Shown here: positions 15,801 to 62,875 of the stretch, piece by piece
Layout of the letters: every line of letters starts with the position of its first letter
Position numbering within the stretch: the first letter of the stretch is position 1
Origin: Amphiscolops sp. MND2022
Lineage: Eukaryota
Length of the DNA: 64,000 bases
Reading direction: 5' to 3'
NCBI GenBank assembly: GCA_964187785.1
Contig: OZ076409.1
Coordinates: forward strand, 21,950,001 to 22,014,000
The notes under the pieces: model-generated
Databases searched by the model: none
What the model was told of the DNA's origin: nothing
What the model saw: the letters and a program-made list of their open reading frames with translations, nothing else
Position numbers and translations under genes: made by a program

Positions 15801-15809
15801 TTTTGTTGA
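12801..15809 (+). CDS. LINE ORF2: AP endonuclease plus reverse transcriptase
   Basis: EN motifs HLNIRS, LSETW, IGDINID, SLIDHI, TDH. RT motifs KSPGLDG, NYRPISVL, LDLQKAFD, GVPQGSILGP, FADD, KYLG. Confidence 0.95.
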   Translation: MIASSNYMNGILILSTLYAKVVYIFVRGFLAYKLKRKKSKPKHKNNLKEQSVENEWIFHLNIRSIDYNFEELETHIDTFRENKPCFICLSETWMTESSDKNAYALESYAPMEFDPGSTRIEGVAIYVHESLAFELLELNIQKDSIPDLNYTGVNCTARNKEKFTVVCLYNSPSVNKHDFLDQFELLLESLSQIKNYYLIGDINIDLLECNPVADRYLKLLEIHGCAQGIEEPTRVTLDSESLIDHIIHNDYQRPLEFGVIKTYITDHFATYVDLNISKSKSIRSQHFIKDRPFLRDGNATSLYLNYLKHCLELVDLGQDINASTELFANAISEAVNAFTVEKQSEHQDAVRPWFTKEVKKALIRRNCSFHRYKRCKTYQNKLRYTRARNNVHQQLRKSKCEYYDSRLNGLINNPKCFYKELNKITGKATKNSNFVIKNDKNELITDDIDVAESFNEKFVSISKTLASSIDNVPFTTHGIKTNEKSLFFYPADGTEISRIIKNLKNHKSPGLDGLTAEILKVSHDVIVEKLTHLVNDSLKSGTFPQVLKAARVVPIYKSGKKSIRENYRPISVLSVLSKIFERVVHERLYNFMDKNKLLYPKQFGYRSKLSPIHALSDITEMIRDNSNLDISCILLDLQKAFDTINHEFLLYKLEAYGVRGVCLDWFQSYLSKRSQCVSFNGKVSKPLLIDCGVPQGSILGPLLFIIYVNDFPNSCKNIIPFLFADDANCVYARPKNETSTLQDEVEHNPGWMAMNKLSQNIFLKNFLNCKDESIVLKNTEITCTEYVKYLGILLDKNLTCGFHVKRVLNKLAKHVSIINRLRPFTSSSVVIRYYKTYMKPIIQYGLLIYGCTRKSALNDIFLVQKKILRITYFKNRRYPSDELFKRSEIMNVFDLHVFELLKFAVRSSRESQLPNIKSVFIHKNSLVFTRSVSSNMFYVPEAQTQVSRQSLKYRGTVLLNHLLKTKLLPRNYESIGENETKRLILKFKNKISSERLADIVFC

Positions 15810-22617: not shown

Positions 22618-24119
22618 AGTTTCGACCAAGTTGTTTTCGACGAGTTTTCCTAGATTCCTCTTCCAACAGTTACCATTTACATCAGGACTAACTATTTGAA
22701 CAGTCAGGCCATCTGGACATGGGGATTTGAAATTCCCCAAGTACATTATCAGCTTTGAAACTCCATTAAATGAAGTTGATAGACAGAACTTTGAACGTTG
22801 GAACAACTGTCTTCCACTCAAGACTTATTAAGAAGATCCGCTCTCAATGTTTGACGACAACATTTTACAAGCTGAGGCGGAGTCTTTATTGGATCATCGC
22901 TAAGTTATTCCAATTTTTTTGAGAGTCTCCCACAAGCATTGTCTAGTTTTTCTTGTTTGATTTTTTCCTGTCATTTTCTACAGTTCTCAGAGGAATGTTT
23001 TCTAGTTACTGAGCAATCAACTTGTGCAATGGCAATGACTGCCAGATGATTCCAAACGATGCCCAATTCGTTTCCTTGCAGAAACATTTGCGGTAGGACA
23101 AAGATTATGTTTAAAAATTGAGTCGATGTTGATTTGTACGTCAGCTGTGGCAACTGGCTGTTTTACTTGTGCTTTTGCCCAAGTGATTGTGAACGATGGT
23201 CGTAGCGTTTTGCCTAAAACAGTTTTCAATACCTGCTTGTGCCTCAGAGCCAATGGCCTCTTTTGCAGTTTTCCGGAGATTGTCCAGAAAGAAGTTCACA
23301 GAGTTTCTGTTTCGTGGTTTGCAACTTGAGAGCGTCTCACTCACGTCTGGTTTTCCCAATTGACAGAAGGTCTACAAGTCTCCGGTTGAATGCCGTTACA
23401 GTTTTGGATTGAAAATTTTTTTCCAGTGACGACGTGTCATTCGAGGCAGCGAGATTTATACTTTTGCTATATTTGCCCTTTTTGTTGAAAAGAAAGCAGA
23501 GAAGCACATCAGGATTAGCAGCGGAACGGAAGTTTTTGACACTGAAAGTGGCAATCTTCGAATTGTCTGGTCAAATGGGGAAAAACAATTTGTGACGTAG
23601 AATCTCCATAGAACAACGGAGAGAGCTGCCAACTATTTTGAACTGAGACTGTTCCTCGCCAAACCTCAGAGCGGTTGGGTTTGATGTTGTTACTTTCTGT
23701 TCATACATGTCATAATGTGCATATTATGTTACACCTGTACAGTTTAGACTGTGTTCCTGCTGCTATTTAGCTTTGGTGTGGTAAGTATGAAGTTTTTAGA
23801 CGTACTTTCCTGTGATCAGAGTACGATAGCTAAACTGTTTTCAAAGATATAGTTTTCAAAGGTTAATCAGACAACCGTTTTTTGTCCCAGTGCCCGTCAC
23901 CTCTAGCAGTAACAGATTGGAATGAGACGGAGGATGGTACCTCTCAAAAACGGGGCACTTTGAAGAAAAAGTGTTTTGTTTGGTAGATACAGCCCGTTCC
24001 GTAGATCCTTTCATGTCCGCTAGGACTGCTCGACCGTTCGCAACCTCGGTGCTTGGCGTTGTATTTGTGGAGATTTCTGGACTTTTTTAGTTGACCCCAA
24101 GGACCCCAGAATGACTCAA

Positions 24120-26700
24120 AAACGACCCCAAAAATAGTAAACACTGCAAAAATTTCCACTTTTTTAACGTTTTATTGCAATTTTCGTCAAGTTTTCGAGA
24201 AATTTCGTGGATTAGAACGTTGAAAAGGTTCAAACGCAAGCAAGTGTTGTCCAGTAGTCGTTTATGAAGAGATTAATGCGGTTTTTTGGAATAAAAAGAC
24301 CCAAAAATGACAAAATCCAAAAAATTTTCCGATTTTTAACGTTTTAATGCAATTTTCGTCAAATTTTCGATAGACTTCGTGGATCGATCAGAATGTTGGA
24401 AATGCTCAACATGACACTAATTCGTTGTCCAGTAGGCTTTTCCGAAGAGATAATTGCTGTTTTCCATATGAAAAAATCTCAGATTGACACCGAAAATGAC
24501 AAAATTCCCAAAATTTTCAATTTTCAAAAAGTTTATGCATTTTCCCCCAAATTTTCTACGGACTTTGTGGATTGGAACGTTAAAAAGGGTCAACAAGGAA
24601 AGAGTGTGTTGTCCAGTAGGGGCTTTTCCCATAAGTTTTTTTTTTTCTTAATGAAAATGTCTCAAATTGAGACCGAAAATGAGAAAAAAATCAAAAAAAT
24701 TTTCCAATTATCAATGTTTATTTGCTTTTTTCCCCAAATTTTCGACAGACTTTGTGGATTGGAACGTTGCAAAGGGTCATCAAAGAAGGAATGTGTTGTC
24801 CAGTAGACTTTTCCGAAGAGTTTTTTGTAATTTTTTAAGTGAAAAAGTCTCAAATTGTCATCGCAAAAACAAAAAACACAAAATTTTCCAAATGGCAAAG
24901 ATTTTATGCTTTTTGTGTTACAGTTTTGACAGAATTAGTGGATTCGAATGTTTTAAAGTGTCAACAAGGAAAAAGTTGGTAGTCCAGTATTCTTCGATGA
25001 CGGGTGAATTGCAATGTTCTGAATGAAATTATCTCAAATTGGCACAGAAAATGATAAAAATCCTAAAAGTTTCCAATTTTCAAAGATTTTATGCATTTTT
25101 TCCAAATTTTTGACAGACTTCGTCAAATGGAACTTCGAAAAAAGTCAACAAGGAGAAAAGTAAGTTTAGAAAAGAGATAATTGCAGTTTTTCAAACGAAA
25201 ATGTTACGGAATCAACATCGAAAAAGACAAAATTTCGTTTTTTTCTGATTTTCACTATTTTTGTTCAATTTTTGTCGATAGAGTTCGTGGACTAAAGAAT
25301 AAAACGCCTATGGCATGGGCAAATTTGTTGCATTGGTGGCTTTTGTCATGAGATAAGTTCAATTTGTAAAAGATGTAAAACGCCGCAAATTGACCATGAA
25401 CTGTCAAAAAACTTGAAGTTTTTGTCGTTTTTGATGCAATTTCTGGCCATTTTCCGAGAGGTTTTGTTCTAAGTTCCAACACAAGCAACTCAACAACGAA
25501 CGTACGAGGTTTGTATTACACTTTTAGGAAGAGAACATTAGAGCGTTTTGTTTCAAAGACACTTCAGAATGACTCCGAAGGAGTCGAATTACTTCAACAT
25601 CTTCGTTTTTCTGCATCCTGTGTACTTTTTGTCACAATGTTGGCAAACGTTCAACAAAGACTAAACTTATAAGCCAGTAGGCGTTCAAAGAAAAATTTGC
25701 AGACTTCGGTTGGAGAATGGCTCAAAATTGACCGCAAAAAGTCAAAAATGTCAAAATTTTTGTCGATTGCCGACATTTTCAGGGAATTTTTGTTCGAGAT
25801 TGGAAAGTTTCGGTAAAATAAAAGCATTGAAAACCTCCAGATGATAAAAGTAGGTGCGAAGCACGTTTTTGAAAAAAGAGCCCAATTTATGGTCGAAGGT
25901 TTCCTCAGAAACCCAAATATTGTAAAAGCTGATAGTTTTGAAGTTTTTTTTACACTTTTAGGCAGTTTTTGTACAAGTTTCTTCCTTGCAGAAAATGGTT
26001 TAATACAATGAATAATCCGAGTATCTCAAGAAGGCAATTTTGAAAAGACAACTGCATTGTTTTGTTAAAATTGGCTCAAAAACAACCAAAAATCCTTGAA
26101 ACAACAAAAAAGTACGTCGTTTGACAAACTAACTACAATTTTTGTTCAAACCACGAACGTTTTTGAAGAAAAGAACTTCCAATGACCTGAGCGTTGAAAC
26201 AATAGGTTTTTCAAAACGCAAGTGTGGAAAAAGTGGTATCAAGTTCATCTAGTTTACACCGTAGGTGTGAAAGTTTCCGAACCTTCTTTATTTTCAACAA
26301 CATAGTCTCAATTTTGGACCTTTCCGAAACTTTACTTCAATCAGAAAAACCATAGGCTCATGATTGAAACATGTAGCCACGTGTAGTCTTTGGAAAAGAT
26401 ATCAGACAAGTTTGTTTGCCCAAATTTCAAAACCTTTACTTGAAAACGTAAATTATGACCTCATTTACCCTGTTTTCCATTCAAAAACCTCCTAGCAAAA
26501 TCACTAGATGTGGAGTACACCTTCCAAAGGAAGCTGTTTGGAATTACTTGGTGAGTTAGAATGGCGTAAACATTCAACAACAGCTAAACTCGGTGTCCAG
26601 TAGGCTTTATTTTGAAGAGACTTCTGTAGATTCATGTTAGAAAAGTTCCTCAAATTGACCCCAAGCTTGTCAAAACTATTTCCAGTTTTTGACACTTCCG
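24120..26700. repeat. Degenerate tandem array, ~184-bp unit
   Basis: Anchor TGTCCAGTAG at 24248, 24426, 24610, 24797 and ~24981 (spacing 178-187), with increasingly diverged copies to ~26700. Confidence 0.75.
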
Positions 26701-43318: not shown

Positions 43319-45284
43319 GGGAGGGGGGAATAAGATCTAAAGAATAAGATCTAAAATCAAAAAAGGGAATAAGATCTAAAGGGAATAAGATCTAAAATTT
43401 CAGAAGGGGAATAAGATCTAAAATTTGAAAAAAAGAGCCAGCAAAATTGTGAATTGTGAAATTATCACGAATTAGCTGCATCATCGAAAGCCACAAAAAC
43501 ACTTCCATTTATTTTTTGCCCACACATTTTACAGCAAGAAAGCTTTCCGCAATAAAAACATAGCATATGCCCACAGGGTTGAACAAGGAAACAAATGTTA
43601 TTTTGGTCGCATCCGACACACATGTCATAATTTTCTTCATCATCCTCGGAGCATTCAAGATTATCATCTCCGGATTCAGTCGGGTCTTCATTCTCATCTT
43701 GGTCCTCGCCACCAAATGTTTCAAGTTTATGAAAGGATTTTTCGTTGGCTCTGCTAACACGCTTCAAAAACTCGGGGAGGGTCAAACGACCATCCCTGAG
43801 GCGTTCTTCTGCATCTTTTATTGCAGCGTCAACAGTTTTAGAGAATTTTGAGCGGCGCTTTCGCGTTTCAGAACCAGTTGCCAGATCGTTCATCTCAAGA
43901 AAGTAGCTTTTAGCAATTATTTTGATTCTTAGTAAAAATACCCAGAAATTCGGATGGCGAACTTGAATTTTTCGCAATAATCCCCAATGAAAACATTCGA
44001 CCTCCGAGTTCGTTCTTCGGACACATCCATGCACAGAAAGGAGTTGATGGGGAATTTTCCCCATCCAAAACGACTCAATATAATTGTAAAATTTGAACAC
44101 GTTGTCGTCTGTATTCTGAAACTTTGAAGGTGACAAATATTGAAAACCTTCAGGGATTTTCTCAGCAGGTAGAAGGGGCAGAGACATCAGCTGCTGAAGC
44201 CAAAAAAGAAGCGTTTCATTTCTTCTGAGCCCGAAATGAACCCACTTTCTCCAAAGCGCTTGTCTATAATGAAAGTAGCAGCCTTGCATTTCACATTCAA
44301 ATGTGAATTGAATCGAAGAATATAGAGCTGTTTCAAAGTCAACAACGCATTTTTCGGTTTGAACCCCGGATAGTTGTTACGTATTTGGATGAATGCAGCG
44401 TCATAGAGTGTTCGACATTTTGCTGTCATTAAAACATAGAAAACTGGCACCAAATCGTCAGAAACTACGCAGTGGATTGTTAAGAGCTGGTAGAAACATT
44501 TCGGAACAACCTTGAATGTTGCGTCAGCATGGATAGTGGAAACGCTTTCGATGATATCACAGGGTGTTTGTGTGAAGAATAGGAGAGCATACTCCTTTCC
44601 AGCTATGATGACGTTACGGAAAAAATGATTATCATCAATTTTCCCCAAGTCAGTGCTGAGCGCGACCTTAAATTCTTCAGAATTACTTGGAACTGCTGGC
44701 AAAGTTGTGGAACGTCTTTTCTTTAATGTTGAGACAATTTTTGGAAATGGTCTTAGATTTTCGTTGGCGTTTTCGTCATATATTTGCCTTAATGAAGTAC
44801 ATGTTGTCTCAGCTGTATCCTTTATCACTGACTCTGTTTTATGGCGCTTCACTGCATTATGTTCTGGGGGATGATCACACTTTTTAACGATACTCAAAAA
44901 ACCACAGTTTAATTCTGCTGTACCTTTGCATTGATCACGCCATCTATGGCATCGCAGATAAATTTTGTCTTTGACTGCCGAATTCTTGACAAAAATAAAA
45001 CCCTCACTGACGTAGTTCACTGATCCTTTCCGTTTGCCCTCAATTTTTTCATAGTTATTCATCTCAACTGAAAAGTAAAAAACCTGACTTTGAACCACGA
45101 ACATTCGAAAAAAGTACATTCCTAAGTACATTCCGAACGAATAAGATCTAAAGGGAATAAGATCTAAAATTAGATCTTATTCCACTCAATTTTAGATCTT
45201 ATTCCCTTTTTCAAAGTTGAGCATGTCACAATTTTAGATCTTATTCCTTTAGATCTTATTCTTTAGATCTTATTCCCTCCTCTA
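43319..45284 (-). mobile_element. Mutator/MULE DNA transposon
   Basis: 9-bp TSD CGTAGAAAC (43310-43318, 45285-45293). TIRs are built from repeated GAATAAGATCTAAA units. Confidence 0.93.
43465..45062 (-). CDS. FLYWCH-MULE transposase with C-terminal RING finger (~532 aa; one 1-nt frameshift at ~44350)
   Basis: FLYWCH-like YLRCHRWRDQCKG...CDHPP, HADATF (D1), VVDFE (D2, after the shift), GCYFH (CxxH), RTNSEVE (E). RING: CVGC...PCGHMLCFYC...CKMC. Confidence 0.9.
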
Positions 45285-46301
45285 CGTAGAAACAGCGAAA
45301 AGAGCAATCACATGCTCCGTGCCACGTCACACATCGAATTCGAATTTTTGACAAAATTTCTGAACATGTCAAAGTTGCAAAATCGTTTGATATTGCTGTA
45401 CCAGAGCTTGCCGTTACAGTCCATACGATTTTTATGCAATTTTGAACACTCATTCTACTCCCAAGGTGCTCCTGCGTGCGTCAAAAGTGTAGCCGTCAAA
45501 CCTGAGAAACAGCCAAAATTAGCCCAAAAATGGCCAAAGAACCGCTACTTCTGGATTTTCTCAAAAACTTCTACGATTTGAACGAACTTTTATGAAGTCT
45601 TTTTACACCATATATAGGCTTCACATGTGCAGTTTATCAAAATGGCATGACTGGGATTCGAACGAGAGAGAAATAAAAAGTGAACAGTAAAATCCGACTC
45701 CTTTATCGCACATGCGGCTCTGGTTACATGTACTTTTTATCAATGATTTGAAGAGCCTACAAAACTTTGTGAGGTGGATTATTTACTTCAGAATGGAACA
45801 GAAAAATAAAACAGCGAAGAACTTTGAATTTTTAAAAATGTTGTGTTATTCATAGATACAGCGAAAGCTCAAATGCGGGTCATTGAATAACGTCATGTAA
45901 GTTACACTAATATTCCTTATTTCTAACACAGCATACAAAATCTTTTCAAACAACCCGTTCGAGATAATTTTGAAAATGAAACAGCTTTTTGAATTCGTTG
46001 ACTACTTCTTCTCGCTTCGCTAATTCGCTGTTCCGCGAATTAGTGACGCCAAAGCCCCAGATACTTTTGATTAGGTTCGTGGAAAAACGAAACGAGTAAA
46101 ATTCATTCTTCACAAGTTCGTCCTATTTGAATAAAATCTATGAGGAACTGTCTCAAATTTTTGAATCTTCAATTTAGATTTTTGAAAGATATCAGTTGCG
46201 GTGTCCCATTGTTAAGAATTCAATTTTATGTTATACCCACACAATACCTACGCAATTCCTGGCACCACGACAATTCGTACAAACGACATTTCGTACAATA
46301 C

Positions 46302-47855
46302 TGTCGTAAGCACGATTGTCCGAGAATGTGAATCCGTCCTTCTGACGATCACTAAGTGTCTTACTCTTCAAATTGTTTCTAGAGTCTGCATTACGCAGAA
46401 CTTCGGAATATTCTTCCGGTCTCTCAGACGGAACGTTCCATCTCTCTTTGGCCATATGTCCAGAATCGGCCATTAGGGCATTTTGGATTTGGGGAAGTAC
46501 CTGATTACTTATAGCCTCACTTATAGCTCTTTGGATTTGAACACTGACACTATTCATCATCTCATCCATCTCCCGAGATATACGGGAATTCAACTCACTC
46601 GACAATCTGTTGATCTCAGCGTTAGAACTACCTCTAACTGAATTCTGTCCTAATTCGGCATTTGGACCAGGCTCGTCAGTTCTAGAGTTGGGCGATCTAT
46701 TTTCATCCTCATTTTCAAATTCATCACCAAAAAGACTATTAGGTCTTCTGGCCTGATTACTATTTAAACTTTCACTTCTTTCATTCCTGTTGAAATGATT
46801 TCCTCCGAGCATTATGTCTAAGTTCTCGATGTCGGATAACATTTCTGCTTCTCTTGATTTTCTTGCTTTCTTTTGCTTCCTTGTGGTAGGCATTTAGATA
46901 GAAAGTCCGAGGTAAATATTGAATTATTATTTTCGGAAAATAAGAATCAACTGTTTGGTACAAACGTATTACACTTGTGTGTCCCTCAGGAGTGAAACTC
47001 GTATATATACTCTCTGAGGTATGACTTTTACAAAAGGAATTCACAAATAGTATTCAAACATTCCAATCGGGGCACGGGACTAAGGATTTTAGCGGGAAAT
47101 ACACTGCAATCTCCAGTTTTCCGACTCGATTGGGAATTCCTAGCATTCTAGAATTACAATTGTTTATCTATCAAAGGCGGCATCAAAATATTTACTAGTG
47201 CATCAAATGGATCTTCTGTCCATCAAAGGACCTAGCACTCATCAGGAATGTAATATGGCCTTGAAGGCCTAGCAAAAGGTTGAGTATTAAGACAAAGCAT
47301 CGGTTATAGGAAAAGATCTGGCTATTATGAAAGTACAAATACAACAAACATAACTCGTCTCATGTTAAATTACCAGCTTATTTCAGCTTTGAACAGAGGG
47401 GACGAAACCGGCCATTTGACCAGTGTATCAAAAGAGAATATTAAAAGCACGGCAACTGGCCTTATTCGGCCATTAATTAAATAGCATCAATAAACGAGAT
47501 TACATACTGCGATTTGATTGGCTGAGATAACGTGCTCAAGTGACGCTACCGGTACAGTGCCGTACATCACTTGAACACGTTTCCTATACTGCCTTACAGT
47601 CGCTATTGCTTTCAATTATCGCATCAATTCTAACCATACAGTAATTTGATTTGGATTACTCCAATTGTATTATTTTTAACAGACTAATCAATGTAACTGA
47701 ATTTACAAAAATACAAAAGCGTGTTTTGTTACAAAACGTTAGCATAACAGTTTAAAAGTTTCAGTTTCAGAAAATTGGTAGAGTACCTGGTGCCGTTTCC
47801 TGATCTGCGGATGTCGTTGTAATCCTTGTGCCGTCACAGGCGGCAGCCTGCGACA
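46302..47855 (-). repeat. 3' LTR (1554 bp)
   Basis: Direct repeat of 60488-62278 with about 9 substitutions seen and a 237-bp deletion. Minus-strand ends TGTCGCA...TACGACA. Confidence 0.95.
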
Positions 47856-48555
47856 CTGCAGGAGCGACGAAAAGCAGACTGCCCGCGTTCAGCCCGTTGA
47901 TATAAGCTTCGCGCCTTAATCTCGTAATGTACTCCGGTTCGTCCCGCGGCGTTGACCTCTCCATATACCAGTTGACTTTCTCGTCCTTTATGTCATCTAC
48001 GGACCTGCCACATACCAGACATCCTGTATAGCGCACTCTGCTGATATCTTCGTAGGGTTGCGTATTTTGCACATGATAAGAGGCATGAAACCCGCTTGCA
48101 AAGGATTGTACTAAGGGAGTGTGATTGCTTGGTCCTTTCTCGTGTTCCGGCGGCGACATTGGAGACTCCGGTACCGGCAGCAGCGTCTTGCATAGCTCAA
48201 TTCGCGTCTTCTCCACTCTCTTGGGTGGAGCGTAGCATCTCTCATGGTCGAAGTATCTTTGGTCCATTTTGGGGGTAGTGTCCTTGTGCGGCTGTGAGCT
48301 GCTTGGACCGGCTACCATGTGTTCCTCTTCGAAGTCCTCCGTGGTCATGATTCTGCCTCCTATCAGCATAGGGCTCGAAGTCACTTCTTTCTCTATTCTC
48401 GCGATGAGCTGCTCCGTGTCCGTGGAACAGTCCGTTTCCCATACTTCTGACAGTTCGTCGTCGCTACTTGATATGTAAATCACTGAAGCTTCAGACTCAT
48501 CCGAGCTATCTCCGTCGAAGTCAAATAATTTTCTTGCCAAGTTGTATTTGGACAT
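47767..48555 (-). CDS. Retroelement accessory ORF3 (262 aa from ATG 48555), unknown function, not env-like
   Basis: Intact ORF in the env position with an acidic N-terminus (ARKLFDFDGDSSDESE) and CLVC. No signal peptide or clear TM segment. The last 89 nt lie inside the 3' LTR. Confidence 0.75.
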   Translation of the reverse strand: MSKYNLARKLFDFDGDSSDESEASVIYISSSDDELSEVWETDCSTDTEQLIARIEKEVTSSPMLIGGRIMTTEDFEEEHMVAGPSSSQPHKDTTPKMDQRYFDHERCYAPPKRVEKTRIELCKTLLPVPESPMSPPEHEKGPSNHTPLVQSFASGFHASYHVQNTQPYEDISRVRYTGCLVCGRSVDDIKDEKVNWYMERSTPRDEPEYITRLRREAYINGLNAGSLLFVAPAVSQAAACDGTRITTTSADQETAPGTLPIF

Positions 48556-49466: not shown

Positions 49467-52400
49467 ATGTCGGACCGACAAGGACTTTCCCCGGAAGAGC
49501 AAAAACTTCAGTGCCAAGAGATCGTTAACACAGGTTGGTTTGAGTAATCATATTTTGAACTAATTAACGTGATCAAGGTTAACTTTGTTCATAAACTGCT
49601 TCCTGTTTCCATCAAAAGACACGTGATAACATGTCTATTTAAAATTTCAAACACTTCCGGAAGATTTCTAAAGCGGTCAAAATGGACTTTTTCCAAGGAA
49701 GCACACCGCCAAATTTCATTTCTTTCTGTTTAGTTGGCCAGAATGAAGATGAACCACAAACTTCTTCCAACACTGTTCCGGATCCCTCCGTTGCACTAAT
49801 TCAAGTGGTTAGCCCACCTTCTAATACTGATCCAGTTCGGCCCCCTGTTCCTTCTCCTCCACCTTTTCCGCCACTAGTTTCTACAACTTCCCGGATTCGA
49901 ACTGGGGAAATGACTCCCCTTTATAGTCCCGACAGTAACACAGACGTTACTTCTTATGCTGATGAGATGGTCCAACGGCTAGAGGATGCACAGGCTAGGC
50001 GCATAGCTGAAGCAGACGACACAATCGAAACAGCTTTCAATACGGCCCCCAACTCGCAAGTTCCGGAGAGTAATTTGAATCCCCTCCTCCCAAGGTCAAG
50101 CACTCCAACACTTGATGCTGAAACAGTTGGGCTGTCCGCCAACCTGTCACAACTTGAGACTGCCTTTGGCGTTGTCATCGGTACACAGTCTGACTTGCCA
50201 GTTCTTGTTCCAGTTCCCTTACAAACAGAATTGCGGGAGCGAAGTGATGGGGATAACGCGTCCTCCACTTGTGACTTTCCTGGACTGCCAAAAGATAACC
50301 CGAAAGTCCACTTCTTGACGGATGACCCTACTGAGAGTTAGAAGGCTAGTGACGACACAAGTCATGTAGAAGGACCAGCCCTTTACAGCTCTGTCCCTTT
50401 TGGATCTGAATCCGGAACTGAAGCCGGGGATGAGTCAGGACCAGGACATGACACTGTGGGACTTGGTATGCCTTCCAGCTCTCGGGGACCTGATGACCAT
50501 CTTCCAGAATTAACCGGTCGAAGCTGAGCCATCTTGAAGACGTACTTTGCTGACACCAAGCCATTCAACCTACCGCTAGGACACCCCACTGTGGCTTTTA
50601 CTGAGGCTCAGATGTATCATTTGCTACGAGTCCTGAGTGATGAAACTCTTCGAATGTCCTACTCTACCATGGAGAAGATGGTCGTCGATGCCGTCAGAGG
50701 CAAACCTACTGTTTCACCTTCTAAGACGTCTCACTTCCTCATCAGGAACAGAGCACAAACTCCAGGCAGATGGGATCAGAACGACCAGAGTTCTTCAGAA
50801 GCTGAGTACGACTCGAGCGCGGATTCTAGGGCCTTAACTCCTACCAGTGCAGGAGATACAGGAGATTCTTCCTTCGAAGGGGAATCGGACAGTGCCACTG
50901 AAATGGCTCTGATTTCAGCTACCTTGGGGGGCGAATCCCAACTTGCTCAATCTTCGCAAGAAAAGGACAGATTCGTTGCCACATGTACCACAGGTGATGA
51001 TGAGACCACGGGCCCCAGTAGTCAGGAAACTACTCTCCTAGAGCTCCAACAGCAAGCCCGAGGGACAAAGGCGAAAGGTTCTTCTGGGCGCAAACTCCCC
51101 ACTAAACCAAGAAGACTTGCCAGTCGAGGGGTCCCAATGCGGGAAGAATTTTTCGCCAAGATTGGGTGGACCCGATCTTTTATCTCTGGACCCGCTGATC
51201 CGGTACACAATCCACATATGGTTTGGTGCCATATGTGCAAAAAGAATTTTTCAATTCGGTCCAAGGGCGCTTTCGAAATCTTACGCCACCATCGTACAGA
51301 GAGACACCTGCGACGAGACCAACGTTGGAGGTACGAACACCTCAAGAGTGTGGACCCAGCCAGTGGGAAAATACGGCATCGAGTCCGAGGTCGGAATGGG
51401 AAAGTGTTGACCGCAATCGAGCTAGCCAAGGAGTTGCCGAAGTTCATTCACACTGAACTTGTAGACGTAGGAGAAAGATTTCCCTTCTACGACGACTTCA
51501 TGCAAGGGCGACCTACTGCCTTAGTCACCTCTGAGTCGCGGGCAAAACTACAGCTGTCCATCATAGGAGACTTCCTACAGACCCAAGGCGGCTTCTTGCT
51601 GCTGAAGAGTCTGTGGTCGAGAATCAGTGCCCACACCGACTACCAGGCTAACTTGTGCGATTTCGATTGGTCAGAAGAGCGCATTACGGTAGGTTCTTTT
51701 CTGTAAGTTGACCAATCACTTTCGCGTTATCGACTAGATTACTAAATGTACTTGTCCATTTCAGGCCATCTTCCAACATTTCTTTAACTGCGCTATGAAC
51801 CACTTGGCAGAACAGATTACGGCTGAGCAGTGCTTTGCTATAGAGTTCGAGGACAGGGGCCCTAACTGGTACATGACAGTACGATACTGGGAAGGCCAAA
51901 ATCTCCACCGGGTCCTCATCTGCAGGAGCCAACTACCAGCTACTGACCTGACCGGGGAACTGGGATCATTGTCCCGCCTGTTGTCTGTTGTTTCCACCAA
52001 GGCTGACATAGTGGCGTGCTCCGGAAGCTCTGTCGATCTTCTTCGCACAATTGATTATTCTCCCCTCTTCTCCCGAGCTGTGCAGAGTTGTTTTCGGTTC
52101 GACCAGTTGAATCTACCCAAGATGATGCATAAGACCAGTTACAGTGTCTTTGGCCACATAGATTTTTTATCAGTCCTACGTGGTCTAGTTATCTCTCTTG
52201 GTGGAGCGCATTCTGAAGACTGGTACCAACGCAGCCCAGAGCTAGCTCAGGTAAATAACGTTCACCTTTCTAGTGTTGCATTCGTAATCAATCAGGTGTT
52301 AACTGAGGGGGGGGGAGGAGCGAATTTCCTTAGTTGTTCGAGTTTAAGTTGCGATTTCCTTTCCCAGGCCATATCCAGCTGCAAATTGGAGCTCTCCACT

Positions 52401-53936
52401 TTACCGACCCTTTGCCAGGAACTGATTGAGGAGTGGAAGCCGATAACAAGCTACTTGACGACGCACGTGCCACAGCAACAAGGTCAAGGAGTCCGTACTC
52501 GGGTAAGTAACCAGATCCTTACAGCCTTTAAATATATGCTGATTAGGAGTTGCTTGAGATATATAGAAGGATGAGTTCCCATTTCCGTTCAGTGTCTATT
52601 GTACTAATATAGGGTCTTATTACAGGTGCAAAGTTTTGAGTGGGGGCTAATTTGTGACGAATTCATTCTTGTCAAGCTGGAATTCTTTTGCCGGATCGTC
52701 AGTGACTGTTAGTGTGCCTTTATTATCTTTAGTCAGGTTTTCTGCTTTAAACTGTACCAATTCCTTTCCTTAGATAACACTAGCTTCATTGTCAACACTC
52801 ATCATAGACGAGATGCCTCATTCTTCCTCTGTGGGGAGGTTTCCAAATTCGTCTACCAGCTGTGCTTCAGATGTTTCACTAGCGATTCGGTTCCTTTGCC
52901 AAGTGCCTGGTTTCTCCTTCTGGGATTCCAAGTGGGTGACGGGACCCTCATGACTGCTGGGGAATTTCTTGTCCGGCTCAATATGACCAACAAGGTTGCC
53001 TCTGCTTGCAAACGAAAGGCCGAAGGGGTCCATTCTGGAAAACGGTCGGATCGGGCCTTAGTCCAAAAAACAGCCGAGACCATCAAGACTGAGTTCGTCC
53101 AGGATGCCATGGCTTATTTAAAGTACCTAATTAGTGAAGTACTGCGACAAGCTGGGCTCAGTTCCAATATCATCAAGGGGCTGGCCGCATTCGACCCTCA
53201 CATTATGGTCAAACGTCCCACGGAGGTGGCGCTCCGGCATTTCGACATCCTTTTTAGCACGTTTCAGCGCCGTTCTTGGATCAGTGCCTCAGTCGAAGCA
53301 GCCTGCAGAGATCAATATGTTGAACTGATTGACTACCTTCGCGCTAAGTACTCTGGTGGGCTCGAAGTTACAGAAGAGGCTAAGGACCTCTTAGATTTCC
53401 TGATGAACCTTGATTTCCTGCAAGCACGAGAGCATCTCCTCCACTTATTCAAGTTGTGCTGCCTTTGCATCACTACAGTGGGTCCTGAATTTCCAGTTGT
53501 AAAAGTGGGCAGAGTTGATACTTCCGGACAACGGGGTCGCTTCATTGACGTCGTTCTCCCCATCCAGAGCTATTTGATCGGGGTTCCTGGCTCTGTAGCG
53601 AGGTGTGCGAGCGAGTCTAACCTCACCAATTTCTCCCTTCTTTCTGCCTCTTTTGGGTCATCTGCTTTTTCGCCTACTTATGACCCTTGGGAGACGGTTG
53701 ATGTCTTTGGGCGGACGAAGATATACAAGTCGCTTCTATCCTCTTATCGTTCCGCAGTCTCAGAGCCTTCAGTTGGGTCTGCTCAAGTGGAAGCCAATGA
53801 TACGTCTTCGGTCCTGGATGATGCGGCATTGAAAGTGCCCAGTAGCAGTAAACGCAAACGGACTGAGAAGAGAGCTGCTCGTTCCCGTTCCTCATCCGTC
53901 TTCAGCGAGTCTTTGTCCAGTTCTTCTATTGTTTAA
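49467..53936 (+). CDS. Antisense spliced cargo gene, ~1295 aa, zinc finger plus hAT-transposase-like. Exons 49467-49533, 49734-51688, 51765-52250, 52368-52502, 52626-52707, 52774-53936; two nonsense codons in this copy
   Basis: Five GT-AG introns with matching phases (1,0,0,0,1); the exons sum to 3888 nt = 1296 codons. Zinc finger WCHMCKKNFSIRSKGAFEILRHHRTERH. In-frame TAG at 50339 and TGA at 50525. Confidence 0.8.
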
Positions 53937-54153: not shown

Positions 54154-57100
54154 TTAGTATCTGAAGTCTTCTGAGTAGTTCGGATTAGGGTTAGGCCTGA
54201 GATTATATTTCCCTCCTCTAGGGCTCAGACTTTCATTTCTAGCATCGTTTTCGGATATTTCGGGCACGATAATATCATCCCCCCTTCTGGAAGATTTTTG
54301 TGCATCGTTTTCATTCATTGGATTTCTTTCTGAAAAAATTTCATCCTTTTCCGGTCCATCTGCCGTATTCGGCAAAAAATTTTCTTGGTTTTTCGGGAAA
54401 ACGGCCGGATTCGGCCAATCAGATTTGTTATTTTCTGTCACTGCAGTAGCTTCATTTCTTTCAGTGACGTCATCATTTAATCGTTCATCTCGGCTGTGCG
54501 ACGCACGATCGGCAAGATTTGATTCGTCACTCGTGATTACATAATCCACTTCATTCTCGCTTGCGTCACTTGCATTCGCTTCTGCCGCACTCGGCTGTGC
54601 GTCATTCGTCAAGCTGGCTGGAATAGGCTCGCTGCCTCGTGTATCTAGCTGTCCGCCAAAGTTTGTTTCCCACGTTGTTACATACAAGTCGTCTTGCGGA
54701 ATGATTATTTCGTCATCCGGCTGTAGACGCTGTTCTCGGAAATTGTCCTCAAGTGGCTGATTTGGAACAAACTTTTTAAGACGAATTCGATGCAAGATCT
54801 GCGTTTTATTTGTATTAAGCCTGCGGACAATGTAATTCTCATTAGGTAAGGTCTTCTGGACTATAAATGGTCCAACCCAGCGATAATCCCTGAATGGAAT
54901 TTTTGATCCTTGATGATCCGCTTTCGGCTGTAATACAAAACAGTAATCGCCCTCTTTGAGTGGGGCGGCTTTTGCTTTTCGGTCGTAATACTCCTTATAT
55001 TTGATATATGACTGCATGATGTTCTGTTTTGTTTTGTCAATAAGGAGTTTGGTCCGGTTCTGGATTTCTTCTGCGAATTCAGTAGTCGGGTGGATTGGTT
55101 CATTTGGATTCATTCCAAGTTTGTGATCCAAGATGTTGTATGGGATTCTCCCATGGAACACTCTTGTGGGTTCGCATCCGATACTGGCATGATAACTAGT
55201 GTTATGATTGAGAACTGCTAAAGGCAAATATTTATGCCATTGTCGGCGATATTCCCCACATGCCATTTTCAGGTTCGTTTTCAATGAGGCATGAGTTCGC
55301 TCTAATTTTCCGATAATTTGCGGGTGTTTCGTCGTTGCACATTTTAGGGTAATGCCTAAAATCTGTGTAATTTCCGCAATGATCGTGGAAGTAAAGGCAG
55401 TTCCTTTGTCCGTAATTAGCGTCGTCGGTAGGTAAGAATGTTTGGTCATAATATCTATGATTGCTTTAGCTACATTGATCGTTGATGCGTCCGTAAGAGG
55501 ATAAGCAAACAAGTATCGGGAGAAGACATCAATTGCGGTTAAAATGTTTTCGTATCCTCCACTTGGGGGAAGATTCGGCAATAAGTCGATTTGCATGGCG
55601 TCTTCGGGTCCAAGGTCCCATTCCGGCAAGTTAAGTAGTTCAGGCGTGATTGTTGCGTTTGGGACTCGTTTGTCCTTTGCACATTGTTCACACCCTTCTA
55701 CCCACTTTTTGACATATTTTGCCATGTTAGGGTAATAATACCTTTGTCTGATTTCCTGCAACATTTTTGAAATCCCGGGATGTTTATGCGCTGTCCCGTG
55801 AAGGGAGTGGAGCAATTCCCGAAGTAGGTGTTGCGGGAGCAAAATTTGATGGTATTTAACATTCCCTGTTTCATCAAAATATTGCCTTGTCAGGATTTCG
55901 TCCTTTAGTACAATTCGTTCCAGATTATTTGCATAATGTCTAAATCGGGCATCCTGTTGCAGTATGTTTTCTGAATAGTCTTCATGAAGGAGCTTTGCCT
56001 TCAATTGTTGCAATACTGCATCTTTGGACTGCTCGATGATTATCTGGTTTGTTTTCTTTAATCGGACTTGAATGTCTGGTTGTTGTTTGACCAGATTGGT
56101 TGACAGAGTTTCTATGGTAACAGTGGGCTCGTCAATTGCTGGATTTTTCCTGATTGCTTCTTTTCTTGCCCAAAACTGTTCTTCTGTTTCGTTGTCGTCA
56201 TTCGTATAGAATATTTGTTCTTCCTGTGATACCCCCGCAGATTGAACATTTATCTCAATGGGTAAAGTTTGTACGTCCTCGCGGATTTTCATGACTAATT
56301 TATCCTTCGGATCTGCCTCCAATCGGGACAAATAGTCAGCTGCTGTGTTCTGTGCCCCCGGGATATGTGCTATGACAAAATTGAACTGAATTACATAATC
56401 ACATGCATTCCACAGGGCTGGGGGTATTATTTTTGTTTGAAAAAATCTCGTCACAGCTTTGTTGTCTGTGAGAATAATGACCGGTTTGGGTGCACCCCAG
56501 AATATATGTCCAAATTCTTTGAATGCAAAATAAATTGCAAGGAACTCTTTGGCATATATCGACATCTTTATCTGGGCTGGGGTGAAGGTTTTAGAGCCAT
56601 ATGCCACCGGTGCATAGGATTTTCGAAAGGAAGTAAATTTCTGGTTCGGATCATCTTCTATCAGTACTGCGTATCCTGCTGCACCAAAACTTGCATCTGT
56701 CATTAATGCAATTTGCTTATTCGGGATGGGTTGTTGTAGGGCCAAGTCGCAACATTTGTCTAGTGCTTTATTGATTTCTTCGAATTGTTGGACTAATTCT
56801 TTCGATACTAGGACTTTTTCGTCACTTTTTAGCATCTTGTAGAATGGAGCAAGGCGTTCAGAGAGTCTTGGGATATAATTCCTGTAGTAGTTTAGGAATC
56901 CCAAATATCGTTGTAAAGCCTTTTTCGACTTCGGGAATTTGGTCTTTTCCAGAAAGTTTTGCACGTTCTGTTTCTGGGGTTTGACGCCTTGCGGGGTAAT
57001 AGTCCTTCCGAGAAAATCAATTTCTTTGGCACCAAAGTGACATTTGTGCATTGTCAATTTAAGGCCTGCTTCCTGAATGCATTTGAATGTAGCTCTCAGG

Positions 57101-59360
57101 TTAGCTATGAGGTGGTCAGCGTCGTTTGCTGCAATGCCTATATCGTCCACGTACTGGGCACACTGATCCGCTTTGATGACTTTGTCGAGGTATTCTCTCA
57201 TAAAACTCGAGAATGCAGATAGTGACCGGCTAAGGCCTTGTGCCAAACGTCTGTAGGCGAATGTGCGACTGGCAAAATTGAAAGCCAACAATTCTATTGA
57301 ACGTTGGTCGGCCATTGGTAGGCAATGGTATGCCTGCGAACAGTCTAATTTACAGAATAGTTTTTTGCCTGCCAAGTGTTGGGCAGCATCAACCAAGGTG
57401 CTAACAAGGTGATTATTGTTTATATAATCAACCGAGATGAGGTTGTTGATTTTCCTCAAGTCAACCAAAAGTTGTAGCTTCCCGTTTGGTTTCTTTTGGG
57501 CGAATATTGGGCTTGCATACTTTGAGAACGGTAGAGTGGTGATGATGCCATATTTGTGTAACATGGCTAATTCGACTAGGATGTCCTCCTTCAAGTTGAT
57601 AGGAGCTGGAAGACTTTGATTATAGGCTGGGGAATCGTCTTTAGGTGTCAGTTTCACCTTGAAGTCCTCGTTCATGCCTATATCGAATCGGTGTCGTGCA
57701 AAGATGTCGTGGAATTCCACTAACAATTCTTCTATTTTCTCCTTCTCTTCAGGAGTAAGGGTGGAATCTTTCCAATCAAAGTTTTCTAAGAATTTCGCAC
57801 GTGATTCTTCGTCTTTGGTGGGGTCAAGTGTCTCTAGGTCCTGTAAGGCCTGTAATTCTTGAAGGATTCGTTTTTGTATGGGCGTATGTTCGTCGGGGTT
57901 TCCAGGATTTTCTGGAGTTGGGAACCAGTAGTTTTCGGTGTTTTGTGGATTTCTGTTCGTCTTGATCAGGCTACTGACGTAATGGGCTGCTTGCTCTTGG
58001 TCGTTTTGCAACAAATGCCAGGTCGATGCCGGGTCTACCGGTTTGACGTATTTCATTTGTTCTGGTGTCATGACTGAGAAACTAGCAATGTGGAGTCCCT
58101 TTTTAAGTTTATAAGGGTGATCTGTGAAGTTATTCACTGGTATCATTATATTGCCGTCGTTCAAGGTGACCAAGGCTGGGCAGAATGTGATGTCGCCTTC
58201 TTCATGCAGAAGGTCACTTGGCTGTAAGATCCCTGTGACCGTGTTTTCAGGGTATAATAGGGAATTAGTCCTAATTAGGACTCTGTCATTTGGCGGGATT
58301 GTGATTTCGGTAGGGTTCAAAATTGGTTCTAGTACATTTGAGTATTTATGGTCAGCTGTTTTGAGCTGCATCGAAAAAAACGGAAAGTTCAGTATTCCTT
58401 GCCTCATGTCCAGAACTGTATGATTTCGCTGGAGGAACATTAGTCCTATGATTGGTCCTGTCAGATGTTCTATTACTATGAAGATTTCATGGAACTCAAT
58501 GTCACCAACTTCGAATTTGAGCTCTATTGTACTTTTAGGAGTTTCCAGTTGCCCATTAGCGACCATGATTTGGAAGTTCGGAGGCGGACCCTCTCGGATA
58601 ACTGATTGTGGTGAAAGGAGTCTAATTTTCCGGAGGTCCATTTCGGGGATTGCACTGGATAAGGCGCCAGTGTCGATAAGTCCATCAATGGTCAATTCCC
58701 CAAAGTCCATAGGGAAATATAGCATGCGTTTCTTGCATTTCAAGTTTATGTTGGTAGACAGGGGTATACAGTCTGGTTCACCTTCTCTGGTAATAAGGAT
58801 GTTTTGGAACTGACTTTCGTCAAGTAGTGACTGTGGTATTGTTTCTTCTGGTTTGTCTGAGGTCTCGGTCCCTAAGGGGTTTGGGAACACCGGATGGCTT
58901 GTACCATCGTTCATCTGCCATGTTTCAATCAATGCTCTGGTTTTCTTGTTATGGGTGATTGGTGGATTGTCATGGACTGATCTGTTATAGAGTTCTATAT
59001 CATCAATAACGTATTGGAATTGTTACAAATCCTGGTTGTAAAGTTCGGCATCCCAATAGGGATCTCGTCCATAGTCAGGATCTATGTAGGTAGGGTTGTA
59101 GTTGTCTACCAAGGGAATGGGCCTGAATCGGCTATTGAAAGCGGATGTGTAATCAGGGTCCCAAGCAGGAATTGGTTTTTGGAACAAATGGGTATTATTA
59201 TAAGTAATAATGGTAGCTTTTTCCATCTGTTGCTGCCAGACAACAGAAGGATAGCCCATCAATTGTTGATTGTATTGGTGAAAAATTTGCGTTGGAGGGT
59301 CCGATCTGATGTATTGTCGGACAGATATTAGTTGGTTGTATTGGAGTCGTGGCGAAGTTA
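54154..59360 (-). CDS. pol: Gypsy Pol (protease, dUTPase-like spacer, RT, RNase H, integrase); one in-frame TAA at 59023-59025
   Basis: LIDTGA; YVDD; TDAS/EFLAI/TDNK/ADYLSR; HHCC plus D,D,E (IDLL, TDKG, LERTH); WVGPF module. The pol frame runs from the slippery site with that single stop. Confidence 0.95.
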
Positions 59361-61079
59361 GTTTTTTGACTCATCATTGGAAGATGAGGTCTGTGAGTTG
59401 GAAGGTGTTGATTTGTTTTGTGGTTTCTGCGCCTTTGAGTTGGGTTTACCGTCATTGGTGTCATCTGGTCTGGTGCGTTTGGGTTTGAGATGTGCACCAG
59501 CACCTTGCCAACATCTTTCTTCCGGGTGGTTCTTTTTACCACAAGTGCCACACTCCGGGTACGTCTTTTTCTGAGTCTGTTTGCCTTGTTCGGCATCTTT
59601 TTGTTTTTTCTTCTTCAATTTCTCGCAATCTTTGACCATATGGCCCTTTTCTTTGCAATAATTGCACGTTATATCACTCATCTGTACATTGGAAGGAACA
59701 GTTTTTGTCTTGCCAATCGAAGATGTCATTGATGCTATGGGCAGGTCGTCAGACTCTTCGAGTGCATTCAGTTCCAGTTCTCGTTCTAGATGAGCGACAA
59801 TTTCATCGTAAGAGCCATTCTCTAGTCTAGCCATGTTGACTGATCTTTTGAGCTTTGGTGGCAGTTTTGCATATAGGAGACTGTCGATCATTTTTTGGGC
59901 ATTGTCTCCGAAGGCTTTTTCTGCTCCTTGGTTAAGCTCTTCAAGAAAGTCTGGCAATTTGGTCGTGTTAGGGTCAAAGACTAGGCGATGCCATTTGTGT
60001 TTTGCAGTTGCCTGAGATTCAGGTTTGACGTACTTTCGTCTGAAAATGACAAGTACATCCTCAAGAGTTTGTCTGTTGGCGTTGCTTATGTTTCTGAATG
60101 TTTGTAGTGCATTCTTTCGCAGCAAGGAATGGAAGTGATTGATTTTCATTTGTTCGGTCATCTCAGGCTGCATCTTGATCATCGTATGGAATAAATCCTC
60201 AAACAGCTCGAACTTCTCACTTTTTCCGTCGAATGTCATTGTGTTGGAGTTGACTGGGCGGATAGTGAGTTGTTGGGCCGTTGTACGGTTCTGCATACTA
60301 GTCAAAACATCTGCTAGCCTGTTGATGGGGTCCTGTTCTGATGCCAGAGCGGGTCGTTCTCGTGCTGGGATCGTCGTGTCGAGCAGCGGAAGGTCATCAC
60401 AGGATCTGTTGAGATGACTAGTGGATGGCATTCGTCCTGTGAGAAACTCAGGAACTTCAATTGGAGATTCGTTTTCTCCTGTCACCATGTCGTAAGCACG
60501 ATTGTCCGAGAATGTGAATCCGTCCTTCTGACGATCACTAAGTGTCTTACTCTTCAAATTGTTTCTAGAGTCTGCATTACGCAGAACTTCGGAATATTCT
60601 TCCGGTCTCTCAGACGGAACGTTCCATCTCTCTTTGGCCATATGTCCAGAATCGGCCATTAGGGCATTTTGGATCTGGGGAAGTACCTGATTACTTATAG
60701 CCTCACTTATAGCTCTTTGGATTTGAACACTGACACTATTCATCATCTCATCCATCTCCCGAGATATACGGGAATTCAACTCACTCGACAATCTGTTGAT
60801 CTCAGCGTTAGAACTACCTCTAAATGAATTCTGTCCTAATTCGGCATTTGGACCAGGCTCGTCAGTTCTAGAGTTGGGCGATCTATTTTCATCCTCATTT
60901 TCAAATTCATCACCAAAAAGACTATTAGGTCTTCTGGCCTGATTACTATTTAAACTTTCACTTCTTTCATTCCTGTTGAAATGATTTCCTCCGAGCATTA
61001 TGTCTAAGTTCTCGATGTCGGATAACATTTCTGCTTCTCTTGATTTTCTTGCTTTCTTTTGCTTCCTTGTGGTAGGCAT
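59358..61079 (-). CDS. gag: Gag, 573 aa, two CCHC zinc knuckles
   Basis: Capsid-like FDGKSEKFELFEDLF...; knuckles CNYCKEKGHMVKDC and CGTCGKKNHPEERC. Confidence 0.93.
   Translation of the reverse strand: MPTTRKQKKARKSREAEMLSDIENLDIMLGGNHFNRNERSESLNSNQARRPNSLFGDEFENEDENRSPNSRTDEPGPNAELGQNSFRGSSNAEINRLSSELNSRISREMDEMMNSVSVQIQRAISEAISNQVLPQIQNALMADSGHMAKERWNVPSERPEEYSEVLRNADSRNNLKSKTLSDRQKDGFTFSDNRAYDMVTGENESPIEVPEFLTGRMPSTSHLNRSCDDLPLLDTTIPARERPALASEQDPINRLADVLTSMQNRTTAQQLTIRPVNSNTMTFDGKSEKFELFEDLFHTMIKMQPEMTEQMKINHFHSLLRKNALQTFRNISNANRQTLEDVLVIFRRKYVKPESQATAKHKWHRLVFDPNTTKLPDFLEELNQGAEKAFGDNAQKMIDSLLYAKLPPKLKRSVNMARLENGSYDEIVAHLERELELNALEESDDLPIASMTSSIGKTKTVPSNVQMSDITCNYCKEKGHMVKDCEKLKKKKQKDAEQGKQTQKKTYPECGTCGKKNHPEERCWQGAGAHLKPKRTRPDDTNDGKPNSKAQKPQNKSTPSNSQTSSSNDESKN
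59361..59367 (-). promoter_or_regulatory. -1 ribosomal frameshift slippery heptamer A_AAA_AAC
   Basis: Lies immediately before the gag TAA. The -1 frame is the pol frame and is open (LTSPRLQYNQ...). Confidence 0.8.
60476..60487 (-). promoter_or_regulatory. Primer-binding site (TGGTGACAGGAG; tRNA-Leu-like, tentative)
   Basis: TGG directly follows the LTR-terminal CA, exactly where LTR-LTR identity ends. Confidence 0.75.
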
Positions 61080-62278
61080 TTAGATAGAAAGTCCGAGGTA
61101 AATATTGAAATATTATTTTCGGAAAATAAGAATCAACTGTTTGGTACAAACGTATTACACTTGTGTGTCCCTCTGGAGTGAAACTCGTATATATACTCTC
61201 TGAGGTATGACTTTTACAAAAGGAATTCACAAATAGTATTCAAACATTCCAATCGGGGCACGGGACTAAGGATTTTAGCGGGAAATACACTGCAATCTCC
61301 AGTTTTCCGACTCGATTGGGAATTCCTAGCATTCTAGAATTACAATTGTTTATCTATCAAAGGCGGCATCAAAATATTTACTAGTGCATCAAATGGATCT
61401 TCTGTCCATCAAAGGACCTAGCACTCATCAGGAATGTAAACAACATTACACACATTCCTTTCAGGCACGTGCCACCGCGTGGCCTGAAATAAGTTCTGCA
61501 ACAATATGTAGTACATCATGTTATTAGGCCTAATACGGCCAATTATCATGTTAGCAATTATATATGTTAATCAACCGATTAGCCCCAAATGTATGTACCA
61601 CTTTACTTTTCAAAAGAACGCAACGACTTCAGTGGCCGGAAATAGCCGGCTAATTAATAGGCAAGCACTAATGAAATATGGCCTTGAAGGCCTAGCAAAA
61701 GGTTGAGTATTAAGACAAAGCATCGGTTATAGGAAAAGATCTGGCTATTCTGAAAGTACAAATACAACAAACATAACTCGTCTCATGTTAAATTACCACC
61801 TTATTTCAGCTTTGAACAGAGGGGACGAAACCGGCCATTTGACCAGTGTATCAAAAGAGAATATTAAAAGCACGGCAACTGGCCTTATTCGGCCATTAAT
61901 TAAATAGCATCAATAAACGAGATTACATACTGCGATTTGATTGGCTGAGATAACGTGCTCAAGTGACGCTACCGGTACAGTGCCGTACATCACTTGAACA
62001 CGTTTCCTATACTGCCTTACAGTCGCTATTGCTTTCAATTATCGCATCAATTCTAACCATACAGTAATTTGATTTGGATTACTCCAATTGTACTATTTTT
62101 AACAGACTAATCAATGTAACTGAATTAACAAAAATACAAAAGCGTGTTTTGTTACAAAACGTTAGCATAACAGTTTAAAAGTTTCAGTTTCAGAAAATTG
62201 GTAGAGTACCTGGTGCCGTTTCCTGATCTGCGGATGTCGTTGTAATCCTTGTGCCGTCACAGGCGGCAGCTTGCGACA
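60488..62278 (-). repeat. 5' LTR (1791 bp)
   Basis: Direct repeat of 46302-47855; contains the first 592 nt of gag. Confidence 0.95.
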
Positions 62279-62875
62279 AATACCCTTGTTGAACATGCTT
62301 GAACTTTTTACATGTACTTTAATGTTGCCATCAACTTTTATTATGATTTCCTAAATATCTTACGGAAGCTTTAATGCGTTGATATTTCCCTGTTGTCGCC
62401 TACATTTATCAAGCTGCTTTAACGAATCATCAAAGTTTTGGAGGCAATTTTAAGCCTTGAAGTTTTGCAGGTTTCAATATGCATCAGTTCTAATTTTAAA
62501 TGCAACTGAGACGTCAACAATTTTGCCGCCATTTTAATGCAAATTAACTTCATTCACAATGTAAACAGCAAACTAGCGTCCTCTTCAGCGTCCTATTTGA
62601 GAAGCGGTGATTAAATCAGATGAGTATTTGAGAAATCAATGTGTGAAGACAACGTGATCGTGCCGTGCCGTAAAAGATGTGTGAAATATTTTCAAATCTA
62701 ATTGCAGTAGTGGCAAATGCAGTGTAATTCTACACGATTTACCACCGGAACCTTACTGAATTTTCTAGGTTTTATAAAAAAAATTACCCTGCATGCAGCA
62801 TGTACGAAGTTCCAGCAGTCTCAATTAGGGTAGCCAAAAACCCGACATTTCGTACACGGACAATTTTTACAAAAC

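Follow-up and report, generated by a model that had tools for sequence, protein, structure and literature searches.

In the LTR retrotransposon described here, the long terminal repeat (LTR) encodes about one third of the 573-aa Gag protein, and the start of gag within the LTR is, judged from the sequences compared, a trait of the whole family. It is very likely that this is a Ty3/gypsy-type family whose LTR took in the first third of gag, and that the gene is translated as one Gag from the ATG at position 61079 of the window, the 64-kb stretch of DNA analysed. The gag ORF (59358..61079, minus strand) begins 592 nt inside the 5' LTR, whose end is at 60488. The LTR-coded part (60488..61079, minus strand) consists of 197 codons plus 1 nt, and the frame crosses the LTR end and the primer-binding site (PBS) into the internal region without a break. 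The limits of the LTR and the coordinates of the ORF thus confirm an earlier note on this DNA, which had claimed a gag start 592 nt and 197 codons inside the 5' LTR and a read-through of the PBS. The in-frame ATG that the same note had seen in the LTR-terminal A and the TG of the PBS is also present, as codon 198 (60486..60488, minus strand), made of the last LTR base and the first two PBS bases.

The element is full-length, ~16 kb, and lies on the minus strand from 62278 to 46302. Self-comparison of the window gave two pairs of direct repeats (60488-61439 with 46302-47253, 99.6% identity; 61670-62278 with 47247-47855, 99.0% identity), which make up a 5' LTR of 1791 bp (60488..62278) and a 3' LTR of 1554 bp (46302..47855), both on the minus strand. 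Both copies start with TGTCG and end with CGACA, giving the TG...CA ends an imperfect terminal inverted repeat, and the element is flanked by the target-site duplication GTATT on the 5' side (62279..62283, minus strand) and on the 3' side (46297..46301, minus strand). Between the two LTRs there are 10 substitutions and a 237-bp segment confined to the 5' copy, and such a small number of differences indicates that the insertion is young. The segment (61433-61669) is located upstream of a TATA-like box and is not a local duplication; probably the 3' LTR lost it after insertion, or the copy is a recombinant.

The class assignment comes from pol. The pol ORF (54154..58914, minus strand, 1586 aa from the first Met) has Pfam matches in the order protease, RT, RNase H and integrase (69-163, 475-639, 708-829 and 1027-1198), and its closest match among PDB sequences is Ty3 of Saccharomyces cerevisiae (Metaviridae; 7q5b, E 3.5e-46), with which it shares the domain order. 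A Peptidase_A17 region in pol is the Pfam mark of BEL/Pao elements (Belpaoviridae); this group was rejected, since pol had no Peptidase_A17 match at E<=0.1 and a sub-threshold DUF1759 match occurred in Gag only. Ty3/gypsy elements are described, in the accessible text of PMC12440569, as having direct LTRs with TG...CA ends and a target duplication of 4-6 bp. Correspondingly, the present element has direct TG...CA LTRs, a 5-bp duplication, the pol order and a pol closest to Ty3, and a TGG-starting 12-mer beside the 5' LTR as the tRNA primer-binding site. Two zinc knuckles of the CX2CX4HX4C type were found in the gag translation (codons 472-485 and 510-523; 59511..59666, minus strand), the zf-CCHC and MLV NC matches being weak. 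Troyka elements, which according to the same partial source have CG...CG ends, a 3-bp target duplication and a CX2CX8-10HX4C knuckle, are excluded by the ends, the duplication and the knuckle found here. A polypurine tract, a general feature of LTR elements on which the classification does not rest, is lacking next to the 3' LTR (5/15 adjacent bases are purines), and for this reason the label Ty3/gypsy-type is used by pol only, with plus-strand priming possibly atypical. The bases before the 3' LTR can pair with the PBS (47848-47869 and 60476-60495), giving an imperfect inverted repeat made up of the two LTR/internal junctions. At -17.6 kcal/mol the repeat is among the 11 strongest of 14153 windows, and for the PBS alone 1.6% of windows were equally strong; genome cyclisation or an unusual plus-strand priming are possible roles.

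Several other reading frames are found in and around the element. Antisense ORFs with a G+C content of 47-51% lie inside it (49682..53936, plus strand). The first of them, a 674-aa ORF in 13/15 listed members of its cluster, is interrupted in the window copy; leads to BED-type zinc fingers (Atlas 0.83-0.84, weak) suggest that it is perhaps a captured DNA-transposase gene. Elsewhere in the window there are two ORFs of a MULE-like DNA transposon with FLYWCH and RING-finger matches (43465-45131, minus strand), LINE-like elements with endonuclease/RT-like ORFs, named from motifs (12271-15809 and 20526-22463, plus strand), and a degenerate tandem array with a unit of ~184-188 bp (24118-25990). Of these, the LINE-like and the FLYWCH/MULE-like ORFs would suit an animal genome.

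Within the LTR-coded part of Gag, two blocks stand out. Codons 1-30 (60990..61079, minus strand) hold a basic stretch and a short helix (14-28, low confidence), with 70-97% identity across clades, and codons 85-143 (60651..60827, minus strand) form a single long amphipathic helix. In the internal part, the most conserved block is codons 276-445 (59745..60254, minus strand), the presumed capsid, with a weak DUF1759 match; its model, of low confidence (mean pLDDT 49), had no Foldseek match to PDB at E<=0.001. AlphaFold, run on 81 aligned sequences, gave a mean pLDDT of only 45 and mostly below 50 in the rest of residues 1-249, and predicted one 59-residue helix (85-143) with pLDDT 80-86 over residues 91-140, the weak helix 14-28, and disorder elsewhere in the LTR-coded part. 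When residues 80-150 were modelled in three copies, the result was an in-register parallel bundle with a score of 0.77 against 0.01 for the best control, at least 89% contact agreement between runs and pLDDT of at least 82. The score mark was reached by 21/30 solved one-chain pairs and 0/23 single chains from microbes, and by 17/29 such pairs (7/16 from animals) and 0/30 single chains from eukaryotes, a calibration made on two copies while the modelling was on three only, and one that a coiled coil may pass through likeness to solved ones. Self-association of the helix is therefore supported, the trimer being the copy number that was modelled. Along the helix, hydrophobicity has its peak period at 3.83-3.87 in four clades instead of 3.5, which might hint at a non-heptad coil.

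The earlier note had described a basic, NLS-like start (RKQKKARKSR) and a helical or coiled-coil-like stretch, and both were found, the latter as the modelled long helix. Its term "matrix-like" did not hold as a statement about the fold, since one long helix between disordered linkers takes the place of a compact helical bundle, and no match appeared among PDB sequences, in Pfam or in the Atlas. An N-terminal Gly myristoylation signal is present in many, not all, retroviral matrix domains; here residue 2 is Pro, nearly invariant in the family, and such a signal was rejected. Searches of Pfam, PDB sequences and viral models returned no relatives, the Atlas gave no usable hit with residues 1-197, and Foldseek with the low-confidence whole-Gag model returned nothing among viral models at E<=0.001.

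The LTR-coded part is probably translated. A TATA-like box (61188..61195, minus strand), a putative promoter, lies 116 nt upstream of the gag ATG with no other ATG between, and of nine relatives with a called frame reaching further upstream, several carry traces of these boxes in translation, about equally far away, a faint hint in favour of the promoter. Transcription would start ~30 nt past the box, near 61165, giving a leader of ~85 nt, and scanning ribosomes would begin at 61079 and make a single Gag composed of a basic tip, an oligomerising helix, flexible linkers, the capsid and both zinc knuckles. R-U5 would then span ~680 nt, mostly coding, and would also serve as the template of minus-strand strong-stop DNA; because R-U5 is copied first in reverse transcription, we propose, the start of gag comes to stand in both LTRs. 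The 3' LTR copy of it (46231..46893, minus strand) comprises the 197 LTR codons followed by 23 codons of flanking DNA. No AATAAA, ATTAAA or TATAAA that could place R occurs on the LTR coding strand, and there is no purine tract beside the 3' LTR either. The helix would most likely bundle Gag, for assembly or for targeting as proposed for Cer1 Gag, and would not bind membrane like retroviral matrix. A -1 shift probably produces Pol, as a slippery-type heptamer A AAA AAC (59361..59367, minus strand) stands just before the gag stop and pol is in the -1 frame; in the window copy the pol frame has a stop at 59025-59023 (minus strand), 115 codons past the slippery site and before the first pol Met.

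A second protein might share the LTR module with Gag. In Cer1 of Caenorhabditis elegans the protein CERV shares N-terminal exons with Gag, and by the same logic the module here could serve a spliced or separate protein, for example together with a 262-aa sense ORF (47767..48555, minus strand), in RNA export or regulation. The ORF, which belongs to a cluster of 93 members and has no Pfam match and no similarity to Gag, is family-wide near the 3' LTR, and its last 28 codons and stop lie inside the LTR start, the same ending being found in 14/15 listed members; the LTR is thus coding at both ends. Yet the ORF has a Met of its own and 12/14 of the other listed members are also 262 aa long, and the frame running unbroken into capsid is explained by Gag alone. 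We regard this second-protein explanation as unlikely.

The preferred reading, a single Gag begun in the LTR, is supported by the layout in full-length relatives. A whole-Gag search matched 2669 proteins among 8000 scored candidates, and in the best 120 of these the alignment started at residue 1 in 111, at residue 18 (the second Met) in 8 and at residue 43 in 1. Mean identity in this first clade (best 120 of 2669) was 85% over residues 1-30, 49% over 31-90, 82% over 91-145, 39% over 146-197 and 97% over 276-445. A search started from a distant fragment yielded a second clade (170 matches) with the same layout, in which the corresponding identities among the best 120 were 70%, 25%, 47%, 19% and 87%, and the LTR-coded parts of the two clades are only 30-38% alike. 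The number of codons before the junction was 181-198 in the 210 relatives, out of 240 listed proteins, that could be measured by a start at the first Met and a junction motif; these fall into 10 groups at 70% identity, which are 30-70% alike between groups. The claim of a conserved N-terminal Gag extension encoded by the LTR is upheld by these lengths together with the frame integrity reported below. Outside the protein collection, 12 pattern matches in viral contigs included no relative, and among 11 loci on metagenome contigs one real relative (L001, 53%, 1162 bp) covers residues 252-571 only and has no LTR, the other ten matching in the zinc knuckle only.

The Met at the LTR/PBS junction is kept as well, in 119/120 of the best 2669-search relatives and, as M-V/L-T-G, in at least 114/120 of the best second-clade matches. 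It had been suggested earlier as an alternative or ancestral start. Either there would be two Gag isoforms, the long one begun at 61079 and a short one, capsid-nucleocapsid, begun at the junction ATG, or gag would originally have started at the junction and later been extended into the LTR. The junction ATG has a better context (G at both -3 and +4) than the first ATG (T at -3, C at +4), which fits this explanation, and Ty1 makes p22, a shorter in-frame Gag product from an internal transcript, according to the accessible part of PMC4599808. The three bases are, on the other hand, fixed by the LTR end and the PBS. One of the three phases across the junction meets a TGA inside the PBS, which leaves two choices for a read-through frame, and descent alone keeps the phase. 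Moreover, 17 ATGs (8 in frame) lie upstream of the junction ATG, RNA beginning just before it would need to start right at the LTR terminus, and 0/196 sampled family members begin at the junction Met, a count that reflects gene calling, not translation. We consider a start at the junction distinctly unlikely, and the earlier suggestion was not sustained. The junction Met can be seen as arising incidentally where the integrase end adjoins the PBS; it requires no function, some use being possible.

The PBS itself (60476..60487, minus strand) is read in frame within M-V-T-G-x. A G-initial codon follows M-V-T-G in 379/382 proteins, the residue being variable, which sets its length at 12 nt. Its primer is, we assume, tRNA-Leu; no tRNA gene was found in the 64-kb window. 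Three LTR-only proteins (P0424, P0576 and P0325) have M-V-T-G-V-G followed by Y, Y or S and then diverge, and these rows presumably fit LTR ends that were integrated together with 18 nt copied from the 3' end of the primer tRNA, its modified base 58 having been misread.

Lone and 3' LTRs offered a view of the same junction from the other side. If the LTR of the relatives ends one base past the (Y/H)D codons, the next residue in such copies has to come from an A-initial codon, and later residues are free. A short-match search gave 1131 proteins, and among the best 120 of them (56-95% identity to the window) 94 departed from the family sequence right after (Y/H)D, with a residue of an A-initial codon next in 94/94, or 93/93 after removal of one row that is a gag read-through, where about 47% would be expected. 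At the next three positions such residues were found in 45/91, 40/85 and 38/81. Of the remaining rows, 8 read through, 15 had no motif in range and 3 lacked an anchor. The 147 more distant representatives included 47 with the motif, and 40/42 of the diverging rows kept the rule. Throughout the family, therefore, the end of the LTR falls at one and the same codon phase.

In a census of 196 members listed from 14 clusters, where short fragments may cluster elsewhere and bias the counts, 134 run from the N-terminus across the junction, 34 consist of an LTR-only frame that stays intact as far as the LTR end, 8 start inside the LTR part, 14 start downstream and 1 is unclassed. Free breakage of the LTR part among family members, which would have spoken against the earlier claim, was not seen: 5/196 were classed as broken inside it, of which 2 reach the LTR end and only miss the motif, in a protein collection that shows open frames only and under-counts broken lineages. 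Of the 134 read-through members 24 stop prematurely in internal gag, and the LTR part is accordingly no more damaged than the rest. Under simulated neutral drift, 591 nt remained free of stops in 8/2000 runs at 43% linker identity, 1/2000 at 36% and 0/2000 at 23%. The gap between helix and linker identity never exceeded 0.33 under drift, as against 0.33-0.54 in 8/15 representatives and 0.19-0.28 in the other 7, in a simulation that had no indels and with conserved and variable blocks picked after the alignment was seen. In the window copy, the coding part of the two LTRs differs by one synonymous and one non-synonymous change, and substitutions (2/592 in the coding part against 8/962 elsewhere, p=0.33) are too few to inform. 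In one clade the capsid is 96-98% identical and the LTR-coded linkers 31-47%; fast divergence of the linkers may mean fast LTR turnover or LTR swapping between lineages.

As far as the alignments go, constraint of a protein-like kind acts on the LTR-coded part, in which the basic start and the helix are conserved and the linkers change fast; the conservation of codons 1-30 could have an RNA-level origin. That the open frame is incidental, or kept by cis-acting RNA or DNA signals only with Gag starting downstream, would agree with the selection of protein databases for open frames and with the rapid divergence of the linkers (21-47% identity in 13/15 representatives), but it is very improbable, as frame, phase and the 181-198-codon length are kept over the 10 groups, the conserved block coincides with an independently predicted helix, and changes in the helix are more conservative than those in the linkers in 13/15 representatives. 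An assembly artefact or a chance ORF is ruled out by the family tests.

Coding sequence inside an LTR is known from HIV-1 nef and MMTV sag, which lie in U3 and encode separate proteins. The 262-aa ORF ends inside the LTR start in the same manner as nef, whereas the LTR-coded part of gag lies at the downstream LTR end and continues into capsid. The closest known arrangement is that of Ty1, in which GAG also starts inside the 5' LTR with the PBS in the coding sequence, as far as the accessible text of PMC10512236 and PMC3522557 goes. There the start lies 40 bp before the LTR end (PMC10512236, in part), in line with the earlier note, which had called the Ty1 overlap much shorter, and the 5' UTR is 53 nt in the available text of PMC3592414. 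The overlap here, 592 bp against 40 bp or ~13 codons, is about fifteen times longer and contains a whole predicted oligomerisation helix. In addition, Ty1 belongs to Ty1/copia (Pseudoviridae), whereas the pol order protease-RT-RNase H-integrase places the present element in the other superfamily. The N-terminus of Cer1 Gag, also from a Ty3/gypsy element, is described in the accessible part of PMC10309623 as a predicted long coiled coil with a basic NLS and a proposed role in particle targeting, a likeness in kind that we compared by description and model. Cer1 differs in that its LTRs measure 491-492 bp and that 957 and 1175 are positions assigned to its 5' UTR; the N-terminal domain is therefore encoded outside the LTR. 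Ty3 Gag has ~280 aa, and in most Ty3/gypsy elements Gag starts with capsid (PMC10309623, in part), and the present element differs further from Ty3 in its 16 kb, its LTRs of 1.6-1.8 kb and its extra ORFs. LTRs have been described as non-coding (ICTV profile, PMC8515867; likewise the accessible text of PMC3601003), and the available portions of PMC4402516, PMC4974528 and PMC5408684 contain no precedent for an overlap of gag and LTR. In the literature covered, gag starting inside an LTR was found for Ty1 only; older, subscription and Repbase reports were mostly outside this scope, and an earlier description is possible. The layout is thus a real but extreme variant of the known Ty1 arrangement, set apart by the length of the overlap and by the predicted oligomerisation module.

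These results mean that annotation tools which split an element into LTR and internal part would miss a third of Gag or mis-start it at the junction Met. Protein code can be carried at the same time by the integrase end, by the PBS and by several hundred bases of strong-stop template, and with linkers diverging so differently from capsid the family is a natural test of how LTR turnover is reconciled with protein constraint. Recombination between LTRs leaves behind a promoter with an oligomerisation domain, not a promoter alone. A further reading, tentative and rather unlikely, is that the LTR is a self-contained cassette of promoter, start codon, basic tip and trimerising helix, from which 3' and lone LTRs would make capsid-less Gag fragments fused to flanking sequence. 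Ty1 restrains itself by a shorter Gag product, according to the accessible part of PMC4599808. Here the fragments might enter assemblies of full Gag by way of the helix, hold the family in check as its copies accumulate, and seed chimeric host genes. If this cassette reading were true, copy-number control would be built into the LTR itself, with hundreds to thousands of open copies in the host genome.
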